In this document: piece after piece, positions 1 to 10,805 of the stretch
Position numbering within the stretch: position 1 is the first letter of the stretch
How the letters are laid out: every line of letters starts with the position of its first letter
Origin: a virus
Taxonomy: Duplodnaviria; Heunggongvirae; Uroviricota; Caudoviricetes
Reading direction: 5' to 3' (one strand)
IMG/VR virus record: IMGVR_UViG_2778261509_000010
Span: 1-32,038 of that record
DNA length: 32,038 nucleotides
Made by a program: the position numbers and the translations under genes
Notes under the pieces: generated by a model
Databases searched by the model: none
What the model saw: the letters and a program-made list of their open reading frames with translations, nothing else
What the model was told of the DNA's origin: nothing

Positions 1-318
1 ATGAAAAAGATAGCTGCTATATCATTAATTAGTATTTTTATTGTGTCTGGTTGTGCTGTGCATAATGATGAGACAAGTATCGGTAAATTTGGTCTTGCAT
101 ATAAAAGTAATATTCAGCGTAAACTCGATAACCAATACTACACCGAAGCCGAAGCTTCTTTAGCCAGGGGCAGAATATCTGGTGCAGAAAATATAGTAAA
201 AAATGATGCAGCCCATTTCTGTGTTACTCAGGGCAAAAAAATGCAGATAGTTGACCTGAAGACAGAAGGTGCAGGATTACATGGCGTCGCTCGTCTGACA
301 TTCAAATGTGGAGAGTGA
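1..318 (+). CDS. Small secreted lipoprotein (flanking gene, 105 aa)
   Basis: N-terminal signal peptide with lipobox-like IVSGC; AT-rich codon usage unlike the prophage backbone; lies outside the att repeat. Possibly the host yegR-like gene, unverified. Confidence 0.5.
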   Translation: MKKIAAISLISIFIVSGCAVHNDETSIGKFGLAYKSNIQRKLDNQYYTEAEASLARGRISGAENIVKNDAAHFCVTQGKKMQIVDLKTEGAGLHGVARLTFKCGE

Positions 319-476
319 GAATATTTTTTGGTAAGCGTCAAACATGCGCGTTCTGGTTGTGCTTAGCCGGAACCTGTGCGAGCACGATGCCGTTACGTGA
401 AAGGCATCGTGCTATGAAGGGAGATTCTATCGATGTGGTCAATGGAAGACGGTGACCAGGGATAGGGCTTATGCAT

Positions 477-503
477 AAAAAATAAGCCCGTGTAAGGGAG
501 ATT
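477..503. repeat. attL: att core, left copy (27 bp, AAAAAATAAGCCCGTGTAAGGGAGATT)
   Basis: Exact 27-bp direct repeat of 30506-30532; sits just outside the integrase gene. Matches the P2 att core as I recall it. Confidence 0.8.
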
Positions 504-582
504 TAGGGTGTCACCAGTAGGGGCTTTCAACGGTACAATGCGGGTTTGAGCGGCATAAATTACTACTGAAAGCCCTTAAACG

Positions 583-1596
583 TTACTCTACTGTGGACAC
601 TGTGTGGACACTCTCGGCCTCAGTACCACCTCTTAGCGGATTAAGAGAAATGGCGTCCTGAAGGTACTCTGGCGCAAAATGAGCGTAAACCATAGTTTGT
701 TCAATCCGCGTGTGACCTAGTATCCGTTGTAGCGTGATAATACTTCCTCCATTAATCATGAAATGAGTGGCAAAGCTGTGCCTTAGTGCATGTGTGGCTT
801 GCCCCATTGGCAAATCCGGTTTTATTGCTTTCATTGTTCGTCTGAAGCGAGGGTAATCAGCATCAGGGAATAAAAAACCTCGTTTGTTATCCGCGATCAT
901 TTTGGCAACAGCCTCTGAGATCGGGACGGTGCGTGGTTTGTTTGTTTTCGTTTTAACAAACGTGACGCGGTTATGGATGATATTTTCTGCTTTCAAACGA
1001 GCTGCTTCTCCCCAACGTGCTCCAGTACTCAGGCAAAGAATCGCAATCTTTTTATTGTCGCCGTCAAGAGCAGCAAGCAGTAAGGCAATTTCTTCCTGCG
1101 TGAGATAGCCTGTGTCTGGTTTTTCCTCCTTAAGCCTTTTTGTCCCTCTGATAGGGTGCTCACCAAAGAATAACTCCGCTTCAATCAGGGCTGTAAACAT
1201 GCCGCTAATACATGTTAAATCACGATTGATACTCGAAGGTTTAATACCCTGACTTCTTCGGGTGGCGCAGTACTGGCTGATAAGCGATTTCGTAATTTGA
1301 AATGCGCATGGGTCATTCGTTATTTTTGTGAAGATTTCAATTTTTCCAAGATTAGATTTCCCATGCTCTTCGTGTTTACCCTTTAAATCCCACCAGATCT
1401 GTGTCAGCTCCGACAGACGTCGCTTGTCTGTTGGTTTTGATAGCCATTCTTTATTGTGGTGGTTGTACAACGTGTATTTCTCGAAAGCGACAGCTTCGCT
1501 TTTCTTATCAAACTTCCTACGGATGCGTTTTCCATTACGTCCAGTAGGGCGGATGTCCACTTCATATCGACCATCATCGAGTTTTTTGATTGCCAT
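583..1596 (-). CDS. int: Tyrosine integrase (337 aa)
   Basis: ATG at 1596 with GGAGGG Shine-Dalgarno upstream; C-terminal HALRHSFATHF...LGH...TMVYAH catalytic motifs of tyrosine recombinases; adjacent to att core. Confidence 0.95.
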   Translation of the reverse strand: MAIKKLDDGRYEVDIRPTGRNGKRIRRKFDKKSEAVAFEKYTLYNHHNKEWLSKPTDKRRLSELTQIWWDLKGKHEEHGKSNLGKIEIFTKITNDPCAFQITKSLISQYCATRRSQGIKPSSINRDLTCISGMFTALIEAELFFGEHPIRGTKRLKEEKPDTGYLTQEEIALLLAALDGDNKKIAILCLSTGARWGEAARLKAENIIHNRVTFVKTKTNKPRTVPISEAVAKMIADNKRGFLFPDADYPRFRRTMKAIKPDLPMGQATHALRHSFATHFMINGGSIITLQRILGHTRIEQTMVYAHFAPEYLQDAISLNPLRGGTEAESVHTVSTVE

Positions 1597-1711
1597 CAGA
1601 AAACCCTCCGAGTGGTGTGTTTTTTGGCGACTACTAATCGCTTTTTTCGTGGTGGCTGAAATTTAGCCACCAATAGTAGGCACTTGTGATGAATATATTC
1701 ACGATGAATTC

Positions 1712-2011
1712 TTAACCAGTCTTTTGACCGGAGTGGGGCGACGTTGTTTCGTTTTGCCCAAAGTGTGCGAGAGCGGGCGCAATTTGCCCGGACTCAGGAG
1801 CGATCTGATTGGTCATGAACCATAAAGTGTATTTGGTGAATTGTGGGGTCTGCAGGATGTTCATCATGACATCTGTTGGAGGTGTTGAACGACCACTTTC
1901 ATAGTAACTCAGCGTGCCATACGGAACCCCTGTTAAATCAGCAAGTTGTTGTCTGCTCAAATACTCTGATTTTCGCATTAAGACTATCTTCTCGCTTATC
2001 GTGTTTGACAT
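1712..2011 (-). CDS. C: Immunity repressor C (99 aa)
   Basis: 99-aa HTH protein (QQLADLTGVPYGTLSYYESG) transcribed divergently from cox, upstream of int on the same strand. Confidence 0.9.
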   Translation of the reverse strand: MSNTISEKIVLMRKSEYLSRQQLADLTGVPYGTLSYYESGRSTPPTDVMMNILQTPQFTKYTLWFMTNQIAPESGQIAPALAHFGQNETTSPHSGQKTG

Positions 2012-2100
2012 GGTGTTTAGATCTCAATAGTATTTAGTTTAGATGTAGATTGTTCAGTGCTTGGATGTGTGCACTAAAAGGCATTATAAGGCATTAAACG
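2005..2100. promoter_or_regulatory. Pe/Pc lysis-lysogeny switch region with putative C operator direct repeats
   Basis: TTGACA (2005-2010), 17-nt spacer, TAGTAT (2028-2033) reading towards cox; GTTTAGAT direct repeats at 2015-2022 and 2037-2044 flank the -10; perfect TATAAT on the minus strand (complement of 2083-2088) as a candidate Pc -10. Confidence 0.5.
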
Positions 2101-2125
2101 CAATTCATGAGGGCTGGAGGACGAC

Positions 2126-2401
2126 ATGAGCAAGCAAGTAACACTCATGACTGATGCGATTCCTTATCAGGAGTTCGCAAAACTAATAGGAAAATCGACA
2201 GGAGCGGTTCGTCGGATGATCGATAAAGGAAAGCTGCCTGTAATTGATATGACCGATCCACAATCAGCTTCAGGTCGTGCAGGTGAATATTGGGTATACC
2301 TTCCGGCATGGAATAACGGACTAAAACTGGCTTATGAAAGCCGCCCTAAAGAGATTCGTGACGGCTGGTTGATGTGGTTAGGTCTCGGTGAACCACGTTA
2401 A
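2126..2401 (+). CDS. cox: Cox excisionase / transcriptional regulator (91 aa)
   Basis: First gene of the rightward early operon, GGAGG Shine-Dalgarno 6 nt upstream, size and position as for P2 Cox. Confidence 0.9.
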   Translation: MSKQVTLMTDAIPYQEFAKLIGKSTGAVRRMIDKGKLPVIDMTDPQSASGRAGEYWVYLPAWNNGLKLAYESRPKEIRDGWLMWLGLGEPR

Positions 2402-2411
2402 GGAGAACCGT

Positions 2412-2582
2412 ATGAATGAACCTCGTTGTATTGCTCAGTTACTGCGTAACGAAAGCCCCAGGGCGATTGACTTCACCATCACCCACGGTAAGGGGCGTAA
2501 GGGAATCATTATCCGCACCAAAAAACAGAGTCCGTTAAAAAAGGCTCTGACCTTTCTGAAAAGCCGGAGGGTATGGAAATGA
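2412..2582 (+). CDS. Small early protein (P2 orf78-like position)
   Basis: ATG at 2412 preceded by AGGAGA; position between cox and B. Confidence 0.5.
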   Translation: MNEPRCIAQLLRNESPRAIDFTITHGKGRKGIIIRTKKQSPLKKALTFLKSRRVWK

Positions 2583-3079
2583 CAGTGATGACGCTCAATC
2601 TCGTTGAAAAACAGCCAGCAACTATGCGCCGGATAATTGGTAAGCATCTGGCCGTCCCTCGCTGGCAGGAGACATGCGATTATTATAATCAGATGATGGA
2701 ACGCGAACGGCTAACGGTTTGCTTTCATGCGCAGTTAAAACAGCGTCACGCAACGATGCGTTTTGAAGAAATGAACGACGTCGAACGTGAACGACTGGTT
2801 TGTGCAATTGATGAATTGCGTGGGGCATTCTCAAAACGCCGTCAGGTTGGCGCAAGTGAGTATGCATATATTAGTTTTTTAACAGTCAGTCAGCGCCGTA
2901 CTTTATTTATGCACGCACGACTGACAGAAAAAGAATTTAACCAGCCATACTGGCGAATTAATGAGGAATCATGTTACTGGCGTGATGCTTTATTCCGTGC
3001 ATTACGTGAATTATTCAGTCTGTTTGAGTATGCACCGACAATTCTGACATCGGTAAAACCAGAGCAATATCTGCATTAA
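2579..3079 (+). CDS. B: Replication protein B (helicase-loader-like, 166 aa)
   Basis: Position between cox and A; ATG at 2579 is better spaced from GGAGG (2566-2570) than the ATG at 2573. Confidence 0.8.
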   Translation: MTVMTLNLVEKQPATMRRIIGKHLAVPRWQETCDYYNQMMERERLTVCFHAQLKQRHATMRFEEMNDVERERLVCAIDELRGAFSKRRQVGASEYAYISFLTVSQRRTLFMHARLTEKEFNQPYWRINEESCYWRDALFRALRELFSLFEYAPTILTSVKPEQYLH

Positions 3080-3142
3080 GTAATTAACCAGAGTTTTTAA
3101 CGCACTTAATTGTGCGGGGCTTCTTTTTGCCTGGAGAAAGTC

Positions 3143-3367
3143 ATGCATACAGTTTCTGAAAATCAGTGCGGTAAATACGCATTACTGCTGCAACAGGCCA
3201 GAACCGAAGCACAGGCCGATGCAGCGACGCGCTTTTCTTCTCATCTTGACGCCATGATTCACCACATCACAAAGGCGGAGTTATCCAGCGTGGAGATAGT
3301 CGAGCTGCTCAGTCAGGAGTCGGAAAAATTTCACAATATCGGATTGTCTCGCGGGGAGGTGCTTTGA
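3143..3367 (+). CDS. Small early hypothetical protein (orf80-like position)
   Basis: ATG at 3143 with GGAGA Shine-Dalgarno; the ORF-track start at 3110 is a TTG. Confidence 0.5.
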
Positions 3368-3669
3368 TGTCCTGTTCTCGTTCGGTTGTATTACTGAATA
3401 ACGCCTTAAAAATCGCCGTTATGAAAAATGGCGATTTATCTCTTATTCAACTTGGTCTTGATAAAGAAAAACGCGAAATAACTGAGTCTGTTATCGCGAT
3501 TTATCAGAATGAATTAAATCTCCTGTCTGATGTGGTCAATTTACTTGTTAAACGCGCTGTATTTCACAAGCAAATCTCCTCCGTGGATGAACTGACGAAA
3601 TTAACGACAGAAATTGCCAGCTATTGCGCTGATGAATTTAAAAAACTTAACGACAAAAGGAGCTGGTAA
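3367..3669 (+). CDS. Small early hypothetical protein (orf81-like position)
   Basis: ATG at 3367 after a GGGGAGGTG Shine-Dalgarno; translationally coupled neighbours. Confidence 0.5.
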   Translation: MSCSRSVVLLNNALKIAVMKNGDLSLIQLGLDKEKREITESVIAIYQNELNLLSDVVNLLVKRAVFHKQISSVDELTKLTTEIASYCADEFKKLNDKRSW

Positions 3670-3893
3670 TGCCGGACAACGTAGATTTTATTCAGGAACA
3701 ACAGGCTGAATTACTGGAGCGTCAGATTAACGCGGCAAGGGTAAAACATTGCGGTGCTTCTGCGCTGGTTTGCGAAGAGTGTTACGCGCCAATATCTGCT
3801 GCCCGTCGTGCGGCTTATCCGTCAGCCACGCGTTGTGTTTCCTGTCAGTCAGTCTTTGAAGCAAAAAACAAACATTACCGGAGAACGGCATGA
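3669..3893 (+). CDS. TraR/DksA-family C4 zinc-finger protein (74 aa)
   Basis: Cys pairs CEEC...CVSC with the typical spacing of the DksA/TraR zinc finger; start overlaps the upstream stop (TAATG). Confidence 0.7.
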   Translation: MPDNVDFIQEQQAELLERQINAARVKHCGASALVCEECYAPISAARRAAYPSATRCVSCQSVFEAKNKHYRRTA

Positions 3894-4165
3894 GTATTCG
3901 TATTGAAATTGGCGAACGTTATGTCGTTACCAGTGACAGCTTTCAGTTTATTCTCCACGAGAAAAAGAGAGCGGAAAGCGGTAAAAACGCCGGTCAGGAA
4001 TGGCTGGCAGTGGTTGGTTATTACCCGAAATTAAGCCAGCTCGTTTCCGGCCTGATGCATCACGATATTCTGACCGGAAGCGCAAAGTCTTTTGCTGATT
4101 TAAACGCGCAGGTTGAGCAACTCAGCAGGCGTTGTTCAGAGGCTTTTGGCTCATATGGCCGTTAA
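3890..4165 (+). CDS. Small early hypothetical protein (orf83-like position)
   Basis: ATG at 3890 with GGAGA Shine-Dalgarno; overlaps the start of A. Confidence 0.5.
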   Translation: MSIRIEIGERYVVTSDSFQFILHEKKRAESGKNAGQEWLAVVGYYPKLSQLVSGLMHHDILTGSAKSFADLNAQVEQLSRRCSEAFGSYGR

Positions 4166-6455
4166 AGCCTCCGGGCGTTTTGTCCCTCCGTCAGCATTTG
4201 TTGCAGGCACCGGTAAGGCGTTTACCGGTGCTTATGCATGGAACGCGCCACGCGAGGCTGTCGGGCGCGAAAGACCCCTTACACGTGACGAGATGCGTCA
4301 GGTGCAAGGTGTTTTATCCACGATTAACCGCCTGCCTTACTTTTTGCGCTCGCTGTTTACTTCACGCTATGACTACATCCGGCGCAATAAAAGCCCGGTG
4401 CACGGGTTTTATTTCCTCACATCCACTTTTCAGCGTCGTTTATGGCCGCGCATTGAGCGTGTGAATCAGCGCCATGAAATGAACACCGACGCGTCGTTGC
4501 TGTTTCTGGCAGAGCGTGACCACTATGCGCGCCTGCCGGGAATGAATGACAAGGAGCTGAAAAAGTTTGCCGCCCGTATTTCATCGCAGCTTTTCATGAT
4601 GTATGAGGAACTCAGCGATGCCTGGGTGGATGCGCATGGCGAAAAAGAATCGCTGTTTACGGATGAGGCGCAGGCTCACCTCTATGGTCATGTTGCTGGC
4701 GCTGCACGTGCTTTCAATATTTCCCCTCTCTACTGGAAAAAATACCGTAAAGGACAGATGACCACGAGGCAGGCATATTCTGCCATTGCCCGTCTGTTTA
4801 ACGATGAGTGGTGGACTCATCAGCTTAAAGGCCAGCGTATGCGCTGGCATGAGGCGTTACTGATTGCTGTCGGGGAGGTGAATAAAGACCGTTCTCCTTA
4901 TGCCAGTAAACATGCCATTCGTGATGTGCGTGCACGCCGCCAGGCAAATCTGGAATTTCTTAAATCGTGTGACCTTGAAAACAGGGAAACCGGCGAGCGC
5001 ATCGACCTTATCAGTAAGGTGATGGGCAGTATTTCTAATCCTGAAATTCGCCGGATGGAGCTGATGAACACCATTGCCGGTATTGAGCGTTACGCCGCCG
5101 CAGAGGGTGATGTGGGGATGTTTATCACGCTGACCACGCCGTCAAAGTATCACCCGACACGTCAGGTCGGAAAAGGCGAAAGTAAAACCGTCCAGCTTAA
5201 TCACGGCTGGAATGATGAGGCATTTAATCCAAAGGATGCGCAGCGTTATCTCTGCCGTATCTGGAGCCTGATGCGCACGGCATTCAAGGATAATGATTTA
5301 CAGGTCTACGGTTTGCGTGTCGTCGAGCCACACCACGACGGAACGCCGCACTGGCATATGATGCTTTTTTGTAATCCACGCCAGCGTAACCAGATTATCG
5401 AAATCATGCGTCGCTATGCGCTCAAAGAGGATGGCGACGAAAGAGGAGCCGCGCGAAACCGTTTTCAGGCGAAACACCTTAACCGGGGCGGTGCTGCGGG
5501 GTATATCGCGAAATACATCTCAAAAAATATCGACGGATATGCACTGGATGGTCAGCTCGATAATGATACCGGCAGACCGCTGAAAGACACTGCCGCGGCT
5601 GTTACCGCATGGGCGTCAACGTGGCGCATCCCGCAATTTAAAACGGTTGGTCTGCCGACAATGGGGGCTTACCGTGAACTACGCAAATTGCCTCGCGGCG
5701 TCAGCATTGCTGATGAGTTTGACGAGCGCGTCGAGGCTGCACGCGCCGCCGCAGACAGTGGTGATTTTGCGTTGTATATCAGCGCGCAGGGTGGGGCAAA
5801 TGTCCCGCGCGATTGTCAGACTGTCAGGGTCGCCCGTAGCCCGTCGGATGACGTTAACGAGTATGAGGAAGAAGTCGAGAGAGTGGTCGGCATTTACGCG
5901 CCGCATCTCGGCGCGCGTCATATTCATATCACCAGAACGACGGACTGGCGCATTGTGCCGAAAGTTCCGGTCGTTGAGCCTTTGACTTTAAAAAGCGGCA
6001 TCGCCGCGCCTCGGAGTCCTGTCAATAACTGTGGAAAGCTCACCGATGGTGATACTTCGTTACCGGCTCCCACACCTTCTGAACACGCCGCAGCAGTGCT
6101 TAATCTGGTTGATGACGGTGTTATCGAATGGAGTGACCCGGAGGTTGTGAGGGCGCTCAGAGGTGCATTAAAATGCGGACTGAGAACACCAAATCGTCAG
6201 CAAAGAAACGGAAGTCCGTTAAAACCGCATGAAATAGCGCCATCAGCCAGGCTGACCAGGTCGGAACGATTGCAAATTACCCGTATTCGCGTTGATCTTG
6301 CTCAGAACGGTATCAGACCTCAGCGATGGGAGCTTGAGTCGCTGGCGCGTGGGGCAACCGTAAATTATGACGGGAAAAAATTCACGTATCCGGTCGCTGA
6401 TGAGTGGCCGGGATATTCAACTATAACAGAGTGGAATCAATTTGATGACGGGTAA
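4155..6455 (+). CDS. A: Rolling-circle replication initiator A (HUH endonuclease)
   Basis: HUH-like motif PHWHMMLF and paired tyrosines in AGYIAKYISKNIDGY; ATG at 4155 preferred (the ORF-track start at 4113 is a TTG). Confidence 0.9.
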   Translation: MAVKASGRFVPPSAFVAGTGKAFTGAYAWNAPREAVGRERPLTRDEMRQVQGVLSTINRLPYFLRSLFTSRYDYIRRNKSPVHGFYFLTSTFQRRLWPRIERVNQRHEMNTDASLLFLAERDHYARLPGMNDKELKKFAARISSQLFMMYEELSDAWVDAHGEKESLFTDEAQAHLYGHVAGAARAFNISPLYWKKYRKGQMTTRQAYSAIARLFNDEWWTHQLKGQRMRWHEALLIAVGEVNKDRSPYASKHAIRDVRARRQANLEFLKSCDLENRETGERIDLISKVMGSISNPEIRRMELMNTIAGIERYAAAEGDVGMFITLTTPSKYHPTRQVGKGESKTVQLNHGWNDEAFNPKDAQRYLCRIWSLMRTAFKDNDLQVYGLRVVEPHHDGTPHWHMMLFCNPRQRNQIIEIMRRYALKEDGDERGAARNRFQAKHLNRGGAAGYIAKYISKNIDGYALDGQLDNDTGRPLKDTAAAVTAWASTWRIPQFKTVGLPTMGAYRELRKLPRGVSIADEFDERVEAARAAADSGDFALYISAQGGANVPRDCQTVRVARSPSDDVNEYEEEVERVVGIYAPHLGARHIHITRTTDWRIVPKVPVVEPLTLKSGIAAPRSPVNNCGKLTDGDTSLPAPTPSEHAAAVLNLVDDGVIEWSDPEVVRALRGALKCGLRTPNRQQRNGSPLKPHEIAPSARLTRSERLQITRIRVDLAQNGIRPQRWELESLARGATVNYDGKKFTYPVADEWPGYSTITEWNQFDDG

Positions 6456-6597
6456 TCGAATGGAATGATCCGGCGGTCGTGAGGGCGCTCAGAGGTGCAT
6501 TAAAACACGGTCTGAGAATACCAAATCGTCAGCAAAGAAACGGAAGTCCGTTAAAACCGCTTGCATTTGTGCCATCGCGAGGCTGATCAAATCAGGT
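6455..6597. repeat. Decayed direct duplicate of the A gene 3' region (copy of about 6123-6260)
   Basis: Long near-identical runs (GTGAGGGCGCTCAGAGGTGCATTAAAA; CCAAATCGTCAGCAAAGAAACGGAAGTCCGTTAAAACCGC) repeated immediately after the A stop codon. Confidence 0.75.
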
Positions 6598-6684
6598 TTG
6601 TGATAAATTACTAGTATTTATATAGACCTCGCTCAGTATGGCATCACACAGAAGTAATGTAAGCGTGGGGGGCGTGGTGTACCA

Positions 6685-6713
6685 TTGATATACGACGGTC
6701 GAAAATTTACATA
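6685..6713 (+). promoter_or_regulatory. Candidate sigma70 promoter for the cargo membrane gene
   Basis: TTGATA, 17-nt spacer, TACATA upstream of the 6729-7361 ORF; by eye only. Confidence 0.3.
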
Positions 6714-6872
6714 GCCGATTTCCTGTGATTGGTTTTCGTTATGCACTCTTTTCTGAAGAGATTAACTACTGATAGACTCAGGTTGGATGTCAGAATCGCT
6801 ATAGATTTCTTGCTATATATGTATTTTTCAATGAAAATGATCTCTGATTTAAACTGTAGTAAGGTGATTGGT

Positions 6873-7361
6873 ATGGATGGTTTATGGGAAAAAATATCGT
6901 CATATAATATATTTAATAATCTTTTTCCAGGTGCTCTTTTTATTTATCTTCTTGAGAGAATGACGAAGATCGTTTTATCTGGCGATGATTTAATAAAAAA
7001 TGTTGTCCTCTATTATTTTGTTGGCTTAGTCATTGGCCGGATTGGTTCTATCGTATTGGAACCTTTTTTAAAACTATCGCGTTTGATTAAGTTTGCTCCT
7101 TATAAAGATTATGTGTCAGCATGTGGTGTGGATGGAAAAATTGAAACTTTGCAAGAGATTGCGAATATGTATAGGACGATATTTTCAATGTCAATTATTC
7201 TTTTGGCGACATTGTGCGTTGTAGGACGGTTTACTGGCGAGACATATGGCTTATCTAAAATAACGTTGGCGGTTTTTGCTATTTTGTTTGTTGTCTCATA
7301 TATTAAACAAATAAGATACATAATATATAGAGTAAATGCTGTTAATAATAAGCTGCCGTAA
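6873..7361 (+). CDS. Multi-pass inner-membrane protein, cargo gene (about 4 TM segments)
   Basis: ATG at 6873 with AAGGTG Shine-Dalgarno 6 nt upstream; ORF is open from a TTG at 6729 (ATG at 6741 also possible). Hydrophobic segments FPGALFIYLL, VVLYYFVGLVIGRIGSIVL, IFSMSIILLATLCVVG, ITLAVFAILFVVSYI; strongly AT-rich. Confidence 0.6.
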   Translation: MDGLWEKISSYNIFNNLFPGALFIYLLERMTKIVLSGDDLIKNVVLYYFVGLVIGRIGSIVLEPFLKLSRLIKFAPYKDYVSACGVDGKIETLQEIANMYRTIFSMSIILLATLCVVGRFTGETYGLSKITLAVFAILFVVSYIKQIRYIIYRVNAVNNKLP

Positions 7362-7371
7362 GGCAGCTTTT
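7351..7371. terminator. Bidirectional intrinsic terminator between convergent cargo genes
   Basis: Hairpin AGCTGCC-GTAA-GGCAGCT overlapping the plus-gene stop, followed by TTTT on plus and an AT-rich tract on minus. Confidence 0.5.
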
Positions 7372-7374
7372 GAA

Positions 7375-8466
7375 TTATTCTTCGGTTCTATAGTTACTAA
7401 TGTATGATCGTGGAGTGGCTGTTTTCCATCCTGCCCTTTCAGGAGCATTATAAAAATGGTACTTACCAAGCCCCTCGGTGGCGATAACTTTCGCTCCTCG
7501 TCGAGTAAAGGCATTAATTACAGCTTGATGGGGATGTTTATCTGAACCTGGGGCACATGATACAAATGCGGTTATCTCCCTTTTTTCGCCTTCATTTACA
7601 ATGTTACCAACAAGTTTATCGAGAACATCAGGGCCTACATTTCTCCGGCTACCATGATGAGGTACTTGAATGAATCTTAATGATTCTTTATTAATGTATT
7701 GGGAGGCTTGATCTAAGGCTGTTATACCAGCATCGCCAGTGAACACTAACGTTCTTCCATCAATCTCAAGTTTCAAAATGACACTTGAGTTATTTTGTGC
7801 CGAGGTGGTATCGTCATTATCAATACCTTCATCAGTAAACCATTCAGCAACGTAATCAATAAATTTCTTCGTTTTTTCAACTACAGACTCAAAGACTGCT
7901 TTTAGTACTTCAAATCCAGCTGTATCCTCAGCTTTTTTGGGCATTCTTGCGAAATCAGGTATTAGAGTCTCATAGTAAGATTGGGTTGGCCCGATAACAA
8001 CCAGAGTAGCATTATCCCAGGTCATTCCTTGAAAAGGCTCTTTTATTTCAATTCCTTTTTTTTCCGCTAATTTGACAGCGTCATAAGCTTTTTGTAAGTT
8101 TTCTTTCATTCGATTTGCAATACTGGCATCAGTTATCCTGCCATCTGCAAACTCACTTGCGAGACCTTGATTATGTTCCCAAGGCTTATGAATCCAAAAC
8201 TCTTTTACTTCTGCATTTTCTAGAACAGATGTAAGTCCACCGACGTGGTCACCATCGGGGTGTGTGGAGATAAGCAAGTCAATAGTTTTTGTGCGGTAGT
8301 ATTTTTCAATATGCTCAATGACTTGTTCTCCGGTGCTGGCATATCCTGCATCAATAACGACAACTTTTTGTTCATCTCTTGAACCATGTAGGTTTCCCCA
8401 TCTGATGCAGATCGCATCGCCGCTTTTTTTTTCGCCAACAGCTAGAAAATCAATTTCGTAACCCAT
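7375..8466 (-). CDS. ComEC-like metallo-beta-lactamase-fold hydrolase (putative nuclease), cargo gene (363 aa)
   Basis: MBL motifs STHPDGDHVGG (residues ~67-77), VPHHGS and KHPH, resembling the ComEC C-terminal / Lactamase_B_2 pattern; ATG at 8466 with AAGGA Shine-Dalgarno; AT-rich. Confidence 0.8.
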   Translation of the reverse strand: MGYEIDFLAVGEKKSGDAICIRWGNLHGSRDEQKVVVIDAGYASTGEQVIEHIEKYYRTKTIDLLISTHPDGDHVGGLTSVLENAEVKEFWIHKPWEHNQGLASEFADGRITDASIANRMKENLQKAYDAVKLAEKKGIEIKEPFQGMTWDNATLVVIGPTQSYYETLIPDFARMPKKAEDTAGFEVLKAVFESVVEKTKKFIDYVAEWFTDEGIDNDDTTSAQNNSSVILKLEIDGRTLVFTGDAGITALDQASQYINKESLRFIQVPHHGSRRNVGPDVLDKLVGNIVNEGEKREITAFVSCAPGSDKHPHQAVINAFTRRGAKVIATEGLGKYHFYNAPERAGWKTATPRSYISNYRTEE

Positions 8467-8628
8467 TCCATATCCTTATTAAACTGTGAATTAACATGAA
8501 TCCAAGATGTTAAATCATATGGATAATAACGCAACTTTTCCGCAGTAAATACTGTGAGCGGATTTAATCTCGTCAGAACTAAAAGCAAGTAGTGTGACGA
8601 GGGACAATGAGTCTCTTTGGGGCGTTGG

Positions 8629-9168
8629 CTATGACACTGACGCAACCAGATTAACGCCGTGAGTCAGCAGATTTGTAATCACACCGGCAATGACCCCAGG
8701 AGTCCCATCTTTCACCGCACTGATCACTTTATCCCCCATCGTTTCATTTCCACCAAGCACCTCGGGTTTTTTGTTAAGAACTGTGAGCGCTTTTTCAGTA
8801 AGTCGAACATCGTAAAAATACGACTGATGGTCTGTGTTGTACTGAATGTACCCGTTTTCACAGAGAAAATTGAATGTACCTTCAACCACACTACGCAACT
8901 GATTTAACACTTTCATTTCTGGTGAGTTAAGTTGGTCAAAGTAGTCATCAGGTAGCGCGGCGTTAAATTTGTCGTAGTTAATCACCTGTGGTACGGGAAA
9001 ATTTTCCCATAGTACTGCAAAGATTTCCGCCGTTTGTTGGTTAAATAAATCGAGATTTTTCGACATGCAAAATTCCATTTCTTTTGATAATGAGTGGGTT
9101 AAACGCTGGACGAGGCAGATTACCACTCTGGCACAAAACAATGATCTTAGTTCACGCGAAGTTGACAT
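8629..9168 (-). CDS. Hypothetical cargo protein with Gly-rich hydrophobic C-terminus (start uncertain, 145-179 aa)
   Basis: ORF open from ATG at 9168; alternative ATG at 9066 (MSKNLDLF...). C-terminal GTPGVIAGVITNLLTHGVNLVASVS looks like a membrane-interacting tail. No family recognised. Confidence 0.55.
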   Translation of the reverse strand: MSTSRELRSLFCARVVICLVQRLTHSLSKEMEFCMSKNLDLFNQQTAEIFAVLWENFPVPQVINYDKFNAALPDDYFDQLNSPEMKVLNQLRSVVEGTFNFLCENGYIQYNTDHQSYFYDVRLTEKALTVLNKKPEVLGGNETMGDKVISAVKDGTPGVIAGVITNLLTHGVNLVASVS

Positions 9169-9259
9169 ATATACCGATAAGCTGGTTGCGCAGGCAACTA
9201 GCGTAGAACTCGCTCAGGTCATCAAGATGCTATTGAATTATATTCGAATGCACAAATAA
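9065..9259 (+). CDS. Possible small protein (64 aa), divergent from and overlapping the minus-strand cargo ORF
   Basis: ATG-initiated ORF; a plus-strand intrinsic terminator lies downstream at 9399-9425; no obvious Shine-Dalgarno. Conflicts with the 5' extension of the 8629-9168 ORF. Confidence 0.25.
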   Translation: MQNSISFDNEWVKRWTRQITTLAQNNDLSSREVDIYTDKLVAQATSVELAQVIKMLLNYIRMHK

Positions 9260-9398
9260 AATGATCTGTATCAATCTGTTAGGTGTCGTTTGTAAAAATG
9301 TGTGGACACGATTGTTCTGCTAATTGTTGTCAACATGTGCGTCAACAGTGAGATTGGTGCATTGCGCGGCCAGTGACAACTTTAAAAATTGGCCAAAA

Positions 9399-9425
9399 CC
9401 GGCACTATGAATGCCGTTTTTTTTG
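9399..9425 (+). terminator. Intrinsic terminator (plus strand)
   Basis: Stem CGGCA / TGCCG with 7-nt loop followed by T8 (9417-9424). Confidence 0.5.
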
Positions 9426-9582
9426 TGTTTTTTTCTGCGATACTCCTATTTTTAGCAGTGCATGCAATATGTGCGTGGTTTTGCATGTGCCTAAGTTGCA
9501 TGTTCTGGCTGTGCACCGTCAGGACGGACGCCCCTCAAAAGTGGTAATGCACCTGCATTAAAACCGACCTATGAAGCGGGCG

Positions 9583-9601
9583 GGCGAGGCGGGGAAAGCA
9601 C
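9583..9601. other. cos: cos-like cohesive-end sequence (GGCGAGGCGGGGAAAGCAC)
   Basis: 19-mer identical to the P2 cohesive-end sequence as I recall it; correct position between the cargo region and Q. Confidence 0.6.
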
Positions 9602-9743
9602 TGCGCGCTGGCGGTGGTGCTGATTTTATTTTTTCAGCGTCTCAGCGCGTCGTGACGGCGCTTAGTCTACCCGTTGTGGTGTTGGTGTGTCTGCGGGGTG
9701 TTTTGTGCGGTGGTGAGCGTGTGAGGGCGTGATGACGGGATGT

Positions 9744-9770: not shown

Positions 9771-10805
9771 TCAGCCGTTGTCAGTGTCCAGTGAGTAGTT
9801 TTTAAAGCGGATGACATCCTGACCGAGCCAGCCGTTTATTTCCCGAATCCTGTCCTGTAACGGGATAAGCTCATTGCGGACAAAGACCTTTGCCACTTTC
9901 TCAATATCTCCCAGCGACCCGACATTCTCCGGCTTGCCGCCCATCAACTGAAAGGGGATGCGGTGCGCGTCCAGCAGGTCAGCGGCGCTGGCTTTTTTGA
10001 TATTAAAAAAATCGTCTTTCGTCGCCACTTCACTGAGCGGGATAATTTTAATGCCGTCGGCTTTTCCCTGCGGGGCGTAGAGAAACAGATTTTTAAAGTT
10101 GTTGCGGCCTTTCGACTTAACCATGTTTTCGCGAAGCATTTCGATATCGTTGCGATCCTGCACGGCATCGGTGACGTACATGATGTATCCGGCATGTGCG
10201 CCGTTTTCGTAATACTTGCGGCGGAACAGCGTGGCCGATTCATTCAGCCAGGCAGAGTTAAGGGCGCTGAGATATTCCGGCAGGCCGTACAGCTCCTGAT
10301 TAATATCCGGCTCCAGCAGGTGAAACACGGAACCGGGCGCGAAGGCTGTCGGCTCGTTGAAGGACGGCACCCACCAGTAAACATCCTCTTCCACACCACG
10401 GCGGGTATATTTTGCCGGTGAGGTTTCCAGTCTGATGACTTTACCGGTAGTGCTGTAACGCTTTTCCAGAAACGCATTACCGAACACCAGAAAATCCAGC
10501 ACAAAGCGGCTGAAATCCTGCTGGGAAAGCCACGGATGCGGGATAAATGTCGAGGCCAGAATATTACGTTTGACGTAAATCGGTGAGCTGTGATGCACGG
10601 CAGCACGCAGGCTTTTTGCCAGACCGGTAAAGCTGACCGGTGGCTCATACCATCTGCCGTTACTGATGCACTCGACGTAATCCAGAATGTCACGGCGGTC
10701 GAGTACCGGCACCGGCTCACCAAAGGTGAATGCCTCCATTTTCGGGGCGCTGGCGGTCATTGTTTTTGCCGCAGGTTGCGGTGTTTTCCCTTTTTTCTTG
10801 CTCAT
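9771..10805 (-). CDS. Q: Portal protein (344 aa)
   Basis: Position and size; start overlaps the P stop (ATGA). Confidence 0.9.
   Translation of the reverse strand: MSKKKGKTPQPAAKTMTASAPKMEAFTFGEPVPVLDRRDILDYVECISNGRWYEPPVSFTGLAKSLRAAVHHSSPIYVKRNILASTFIPHPWLSQQDFSRFVLDFLVFGNAFLEKRYSTTGKVIRLETSPAKYTRRGVEEDVYWWVPSFNEPTAFAPGSVFHLLEPDINQELYGLPEYLSALNSAWLNESATLFRRKYYENGAHAGYIMYVTDAVQDRNDIEMLRENMVKSKGRNNFKNLFLYAPQGKADGIKIIPLSEVATKDDFFNIKKASAADLLDAHRIPFQLMGGKPENVGSLGDIEKVAKVFVRNELIPLQDRIREINGWLGQDVIRFKNYSLDTDNG

Follow-up and report, generated by a model that had tools for sequence, protein, structure and literature searches.

Why a prophage should carry a second, broken copy of the end of its own replication gene directly ahead of a set of cargo genes is the question raised by one locus in IMG/VR virus record IMGVR_UViG_2778261509_000010 (the window, here the whole stretch analysed, is 32,038 nt long). 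The gene order is that of a P2-like prophage, namely integrase, C, cox, B, A, cargo, Q, P and late genes, with the cargo lying between the replication endonuclease gene A and the portal gene Q and adjoining the cohesive-end site cos. An earlier note on this DNA had described a repeat of part of A just downstream of the gene, and took it to be the boundary at which the cargo island recombines. Our reading, which we hold at a probability of about 0.78, is that the stretch from 6446 to ~6765 is a non-functional scar: a former A 3′ end that once adjoined the PDC-M48 cargo, was displaced by an illegitimate join and has been passive since. The features on which this reading depends, including the origin of replication (ori), are listed below.

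4155–6455, plus strand: gene A, replication endonuclease, 766 aa, intact (Pfam Phage_GPA, E=2.5e-123; the RefSeq coding sequence (CDS) 1..2301 of NZ_CP042336 maps here).
6005–6021, plus strand: ori nick-site motif CGCGCCTCGGAGTCCTG, identical in P2 and the window (rep_origin 29892 of AF063097 is window 6013).
6113–6455, plus strand: copy 1, the functional A 3′ end that is repeated downstream (repeat search and gapped alignment).
6442–6445, plus strand: probable join, a TTGA microhomology equivalent to 6109–6112 in copy 1.
6446–6560, plus strand: copy 2, well-preserved tier, equivalent to 6113–6228 (90–97% match to the majority of 46 alleles).
6561–~6765, plus strand: copy 2, decayed tier, equivalent to 6229–~6440 (50–63% match to alleles, with indels and stop codons).

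The coordinates of A use the RefSeq start, the nick position at window 6013 rests on the annotation of AF063097, and the end of copy 2 at ~6765 is approximate, being set by collinearity with the A stop codon of phage 11W. The product of A is an HUH-type initiator by its matches to Pfam Phage_GPA and REP_ORF2-G2P.

A repeat search aligned 6120–6244 with 6452–6576 over 125 nt, ungapped and at 89% identity, and a gapped local alignment stretched the homology to ~6102–6407 against 6435–6732. Compared with dinucleotide shuffles, the proximal part of the repeat scored z=69, the distal part (6583–6790 against 6251–6455) z=15 and the farthest 130 nt z=7.8, and tblastn on copy 2 gave segments at 81% and 38% amino acid identity, the second of these being the decayed tier. 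The pairwise alignment of the two regions is one of long homology and not of short low-complexity matches. The repeat of 6123–6260 at 6455–6597 that had been reported earlier is consequently real by both alignment and shuffle tests, but those coordinates cover the well-preserved half only; what recurs in tandem at 6446–~6765 is essentially the whole A 3′ end, ~335 bp (6113–6455).

The offset between the copies at their start is 333 nt, or 111 codons, so that copy 2 starts in the reading frame of A. In one allele, L008, the natural A tail reads ...TGG CAT CAA TTT GAG TAA, and the window has ...TGG AAT CAA TTT GA at the corresponding place; since L008 ends in a comparable tail, CAATTTGA is the natural tail of A and belongs to copy 1. 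This places the probable join at TTGA, 6442–6445 in the window and 6109–6112 in copy 1. A single-nucleotide deletion (equivalent to T6119) together with a T>A change at 6454 has converted GGT GTT ATC to GG- GTA ATC, giving a TAA stop at 6453–6455 and an A protein ending ...NQFDDG*, the last three codons and stop of which (DDG*) come from the beginning of copy 2. Among the A tails surveyed the final 5–25 codons vary with cargo type, and the scar suggests that A tolerates changes at its extreme C-terminus.

The coding capacity of copy 2 has been lost through the single-nucleotide deletion, the TAA at its start, further indels and distal stop codons in all frames. The decay is uneven. At 6464–6553 copy 2 matched the majority of the 46 A alleles at 90–97% and some allele at 97–100%, and this tier of ~105 nt holds only three private substitutions besides the stop-making changes (at 6469, 6474 and 6519), two of the private changes being non-synonymous. 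The match to the alleles then dropped to 73% at 6554–6582 and beyond that to 50–63% with indels and stop codons. The decayed tier has a GC content of 39%, compared with 50% in copy 1, and 36 GC>AT changes against 17 AT>GC, an AT-biased decay that looks neutral, whereas the proximal tier is unexpectedly well kept; the carriers, with 0–3 differences, are too alike for a population test. Uniform neutral decay cannot produce ~3% private change beside ~40% divergence, and any account of the locus has to accommodate this step.

The remaining features of the region, which are needed for the comparison with relatives, are as follows.

6810–6838, plus strand: promoter-like TTGCTA-N17-GAAAAT 5′ of cargo gene 1, kept in three PDC-M48A lineages.
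6873–7361, plus strand: cargo gene 1, PDC-M48A-like small membrane protein, 162 aa (PADLOC PDLC04670, E=1.7e-50; a RefSeq CDS in strain LR-25).
7375–8466, minus strand: cargo gene 2, PDC-M48B-like metallo-beta-lactamase-fold protein, 363 aa (PADLOC PDLC04676, E=7.4e-101; Pfam Lactamase_B, E=6.8e-12).
8629–9168, minus strand: cargo open reading frame (ORF) 3, 179 aa (RefSeq version 145 aa, 8629–9066).
9583–9601, plus strand: cos cohesive-end sequence GGCGAGGCGGGGAAAGCAC, an exact match to the P2 cosR 19-mer and the right edge of the co-inherited block.
9771–10805: portal gene Q.

Hidden Markov model matches to the PADLOC candidate system PDC-M48A/B make the cargo a candidate anti-phage defence pair. 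No Pfam or PADLOC family match was found for ORF 3, which is missing from the 11W-type cassette, where the M48A/B pair stands alone. The interval 6456–6872 is non-coding and RefSeq annotates nothing there. A 210-aa ORF starting from a TTG at 6729 was rejected as an artefactual extension, as the PADLOC match to PDC-M48A begins only at its residue 49, encoded by the ATG at 6873. The motif at 6810–6838 is probably the cargo's own promoter, to judge from its sequence, and falls below the threshold of a consensus scan.

The best alignment of window 6000–7500 to phage 11W ran from 6435 through the cargo. Copy 2 and the cargo together are collinear with the intact A 3′ end of 11W, a 115-nt spacer and its PDC-M48A/B genes, from which it follows that copy 2 is the remnant of an A end that once adjoined the cargo. 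PDC-M48A lies directly after an intact A in the 11W-type phages and also in a distant A lineage, and TTGCTA-N17-RARAAT is found 5′ of PDC-M48A in all three lineages, with the PDC-M48 lineages other than that of the window being without the remnant.

The distribution of the duplicate was surveyed in 5,426 complete E. coli genomes, 1,681 of which have a P2-like A 3′ region. The duplicate arrangement was found in 23 of the 5,426 and in none of the other ~1,660 genomes with a P2-like A, and it is also present in four IMG/VR contigs. The decayed tier and leader (6560–6872) were found in exactly those 23 E. coli genomes, with no hit in the phage collection, and cargo at least 99% identical to that of the window was found in exactly the same 23, making the linkage with the remnant perfect and exclusive. 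Within IMG/VR the tail motif of copy 1 was seen only in the four contigs that bear the cargo. Of 157 A-to-cargo junctions taken from IMG/VR and GTDB genomes, three have the duplicate (the window, L003 and L004) and 154 do not. The duplication is accordingly not a general property of P2-like genomes, and wherever it occurs the cargo is the same PDC-M48A/B pair.

Many of the 'complete' E. coli chromosomes searched begin at base 1 of prophage gene A (for example NZ_CP042336, NZ_CP117001 and NZ_CP048025, and loci L165 and L183), and matches in such rotated records recur at record positions 1846–3246 or 2396–3984. This is presumably the work of a tool for rotating genomes that took the replication endonuclease to be a chromosomal start gene.

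To place the edges of the co-inherited block, RefSeq genomes were used because the same-cargo groups in IMG/VR were too small, and the window, nine RefSeq genomes and four IMG/VR contigs gave 14 carriers of the window-type cargo. Across A to ~5976 these carriers showed 4–15 segregating sites per 100 nt, with at least 10 haplotypes in 5726–5976. From ~5977 to 9599 there were 0–2 per 100 nt, and the number jumped to 21 at 9600–9699, directly past cos. The near-identical block starts at ~5977–6046, ~430 nt upstream of the scar. Its sole interruption is a foreign patch at 6133–6270 in strain LR-25 (L164), with 22 differences and inside copy 1, which looks like a gene-conversion tract of at most ~230 nt within the ori–cos block. 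In eight carriers of the scar-free 11W-type cargo the last polymorphisms on the left were 25–49 nt before the ori motif, and the sequence was near-monomorphic on to cos, after which there were 22 segregating sites per 100 nt (n=8). In locus L192 the corresponding segment is 3933–6530. Both sets of carriers put the edges at ori and cos, so the proposal that the scar is the recombination boundary of the cargo island has to be abandoned; the scar is instead a passenger inside a block that runs from the ori nick (~6013) to cos (9583–9601), and not a working boundary.

A broader panel of 54 loci gave a similar but less strict picture. Just left of ori, pairs with the same cargo were no closer than pairs with different cargo (96.8% and 96.7% identity, respectively), whereas just right of ori the values were 99.7% and 93.3%. 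The step fell at ori in 8 of the 13 independent same-cargo pairs, with the last differences 22–142 nt to its left, and in the other five the differences ran past ori. Between the window-type and the 11W-type cassette, identity is 64% on the left side of cos and rises to 96% on the right. On these comparisons the ori-to-cos interval behaves as a separate, deeply diverged linkage unit, with cos as a sharp edge and ori as a preferred but leaky one.

The good state of the proximal half of copy 2 might be explained if it were a functional cis element, for instance an accessory origin, a binding site for A, a site regulating the cargo or a stretch of homology that aids its capture, and the presence there of so few private substitutions, in sharp contrast with the adjacent decay, as well as of a palindrome, AACGGAAGTCCGTT, would be in keeping with this. 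However, the ori motif is present in the window as a single copy (allowing up to three mismatches), copy 2 contains no ori nick motif and the duplicated unit starts ~100 nt downstream of the nick. Among 51 A alleles the third-codon-position diversity was 0.000 at 5988–6032, over the annotated nick, which reads as the clear footprint of a cis-acting origin inside the coding sequence; it was an ordinary 0.10–0.16 at 6102–6257 and climbed to 0.37–0.47 in the last 90 nt of A. As diversity across the repeated stretch of A is ordinary, unlike that of the ori core, the preserved tier matches no DNA-level element inside A. An Rfam search of copy 2 gave no match at E≤1, its predicted RNA fold was no better than those of shuffled sequences (minimum free energy z=−0.82), and a promoter scan of copy 2 found none, with one weak terminator-like site on the minus strand as the only signal. 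The other PDC-M48 cassettes are without copy 2 yet keep the promoter-like motif farther downstream, and a crossover between copy 2 and the A gene of another phage would truncate A. A cis element is for these reasons very unlikely, and copy 2 is best regarded as a scar with no function of its own. That copy 2 serves as an alternative C-terminus of A, reached by frameshifting or stop-codon readthrough, is highly improbable. The A-like frame is open for 43 codons (6457–6588), and the only notable ORF in copy 2 is this leftover A frame, 35 aa from a GTG start (6479–6586), but readthrough of the TAA at 6453–6455 meets a TGA after nine codons, the A-like frame can be entered only by a frameshift for which there is no evident slippery site, most of the few private changes alter the protein and the last eight codons are scrambled. 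Apart from the tandem nature of the repeat nothing points to an assembly artefact, which can be practically dismissed given that the two copies differ by at least 10% and that the same structure recurs in 23 complete genomes, each assembled independently, and in four IMG/VR contigs.

The history we favour has two steps. The A end next to the cargo would probably already have been truncated, with a stop near 6586–6588 and the tail beyond it decaying, and its proximal part would have remained under coding constraint until the join. An illegitimate join at the TTGA microhomology would then have set a complete A 3′ end before the old one, in frame, after which the single-nucleotide deletion and the T>A change would have given A its stop three codons past the join. 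Since then the scar would have been carried passively within an ori-to-cos unit, comprising A tail, scar and cargo, that moves between P2-like backbones. The homology, the loss of coding capacity, the linkage to this cargo, the collinearity with 11W and the edges of the block are shown by the data, whereas which event came first, which parents took part and whether a truncated A is viable are matters that we infer. The two earlier proposals on how the repeat arose stand in part. Copy 2 is indeed a cargo-linked, pseudogenised A end, collinear with 11W, as expected for a scar of cargo exchange within the A 3′ end, but the exchange was not a homologous one; and the present C-terminus and the remnant are alternative ends in so far as the remnant is a pseudogenised alternative 3′ end, the join being an illegitimate one between an A end and a site 111 codons upstream.

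The state envisaged in the first step is found in three loci (L055–L057), in which a single-copy A is intact to a premature TAA equivalent to 6271 and is followed by a tail of ~60% identity (stops at 5728/5736). The L055-type cassette occurs in two backbones, L055 and L056 being 96.2% identical left of ori and 100% identical right of it, which suggests that such phages still move and hints that A may be able to do without its C-terminal ~60 residues. The premature stops in the A genes of L055, L056, L057, L064 and L155 all lie ~55–65 codons before the normal end and are followed by a decayed remainder of A. L064 and L155 had been considered as additional remnants and were rejected, since in each of them the sequence past the premature stop is the remainder of the same A gene. 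A second scar is present in an Enterobacteriaceae genome (L089), where an open remnant of 61 codons (~7529–7711), 1.5 kb past an intact P2-type A (stop at 6029), has 59% amino acid identity (E=1e-21) to the C-terminus of a different, L117-like A lineage. This independent case indicates that gene-A scars recur and can derive from another phage.

Several observations weigh against the two-step history. A single-copy parent arrangement was looked for and none was found, the closest relatives of the cargo having only 63–66% protein identity. The L055-type truncated A is rare, with one example in the 5,426 genomes and none in an isolated phage. For the decayed tier no source allele was identified, the best of 146 A tails reaching only ~72%, a value which also indicates that the tier is old and was not recently imported. 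The change-point at ~6554–6582 lies ~27 nt upstream of the stop of the A-like frame in copy 2, with no exact coincidence. Finally, a private synonymous T at 6215/6548 is common to both copies and is found in none of 52 other alleles, a pattern for which gene conversion between the copies, or duplication within one genome, is no worse an explanation than the two-step history. Shared derived changes between the tail of copy 2 and the decayed tail of L055 were limited to a few AT-biased coincidences and were unconvincing. In a search of copy 1 for allelic sequence of imported origin, which would have pointed to the copies being sisters, the haplotypes proved too mosaic for a decision.

The shared T is one reason to consider that the repeat arose as a tandem duplication within one genome, by slippage or unequal sister exchange and with no exchange of cargo, repeated conversion from copy 1 having since kept the proximal 115 nt alike while the distal part escaped it and decayed. 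The tandem arrangement, in register at 333 nt, and the alike haplotypes of the two copies at 6161, 6164 and 6227 would follow directly from such an event. Against this, at 6133, 6146, 6174 and 6175 it is copy 2 that has the common state and copy 1 a rare one, and the identity of copy 2 to allele L013 (92.1%) is slightly higher than its identity to copy 1 (89.8%). Conversion into a partner that is only 60% identical would be hard to sustain, the similar two-tier state of the single-copy L055–L057 genes would be left unexplained, and the L089 scar came from a foreign A lineage. We therefore consider an intragenomic origin somewhat unlikely, and the two-step history is modestly favoured over gene conversion.

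How the ori-to-cos unit is exchanged is a separate matter. One proposal, which we regard as doubtful, is that the enzymes with which the phage breaks its own DNA, and not general recombination, exchange the cargo as a cassette running from ori to cos. Under it, co-resident genomes would be joined by their identical cohesive ends, and a rolling circle started at one ori nick would be ended by the HUH-type A protein at the ori of the next genome, so that the monomer released would hold the ori, A tail, cargo and cos of one phage in the backbone of the other. On this view the scar would have been left behind by an infrequent illegitimate repair event inside such a cassette, which may have restored one whose A end was damaged. 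HUH initiators start at one origin and terminate at the next, as in multimer resolution and hybrid formation by rolling-circle replication plasmids and in relaxase-mediated recombination between two transfer origins (oriT–oriT). The phage locus resembles these systems in that one edge of the exchanged unit is at an HUH-type nick site, with a resolution of ~30–60 nt. It differs from them in that the junction is not pinned exactly to the nick, that no patch nearby offers better homology than the invariant ori core, and that crossovers lie beyond ori in 5 of the 13 same-cargo pairs. Homologous recombination stimulated by the nick and by the cut at cos fits the block edges, as does ordinary homologous crossover, which would be favoured at the ori core and cos because nothing else next to the diverged cassette sequence is near-invariant. 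The sequence data cannot separate these mechanisms because there is no polymorphism within ~20–40 nt of the nick.

Damage of other kinds was seen in relatives of the locus. An 11W-type PDC-M48A is interrupted by an ISEc12 insertion in GZEC065 (L183, 2396–4882), and a candidate cargo-side scar, H149, was rejected as it is an ISEc12 insertion. PDC-M48B is split in CB8671 (L189, 5876–6966), the terminase of ETEC6 has an internal stop (L187, 9304–10401), and gene A of L177 has an internal deletion of ~130 codons (2276–2882).

The interval between gpA and gpQ (old/tin, 'TO'), adjoining cos, is a known defence hotspot of P2-type phages (Rousset et al. 2022, PMC9122126; PMC13586616), and a hotspot-annotation preprint also sets the hotspot between the two genes. 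The locus described here resembles it in its A–Q position beside cos, its candidate defence pair, its rapid turnover and the occurrence of the same cargo across backbones. Rousset et al. speculated that the cohesive ends and a second homologous event mediate exchange, and stated that the mechanism is open (PMC9122126). In the other study (PMC13586616), defence genes are described as integrating at hotspots "through a presumably different mechanism" and as having low linkage with whole core genes, and ori is not mentioned. While those papers deal with intergenic space and whole-gene linkage, the unit found here runs from the ori nick inside A to cos, and the cassette of the window, unlike the hotspot as described, bears a pseudo-end of gene A. 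Small intergenic pseudogene fragments, some of them core-gene-like, were also reported to be common at defence loci and are likely to be recombination remnants (PMC13586616). Copy 2 is similar, being an unannotated intergenic piece that resembles a core gene at a defence locus, but that description is statistical, whereas the present piece can be identified as part of gpA, duplicated in tandem and in frame; its junction is mapped, its decay falls into two tiers and an intact relative is collinear with it. We found no description of the ori-side boundary or of this gpA duplicate in the searchable literature, older P2 papers in subscription journals being outside its scope.

The scar shows that at least some of the cargo turnover at the best-studied phage defence hotspot proceeds by illegitimate joins, in which part of an essential gene becomes duplicated. 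It is chiefly useful as a unique tag of one cassette, which could be traced through 14 genomes to an ori-to-cos unit. The edges of that block recur in eight genomes of an unrelated set and, less strictly, in the broad panel. The scar itself is an ordinary and small piece of natural history, and the ori-to-cos unit is the more valuable lead.

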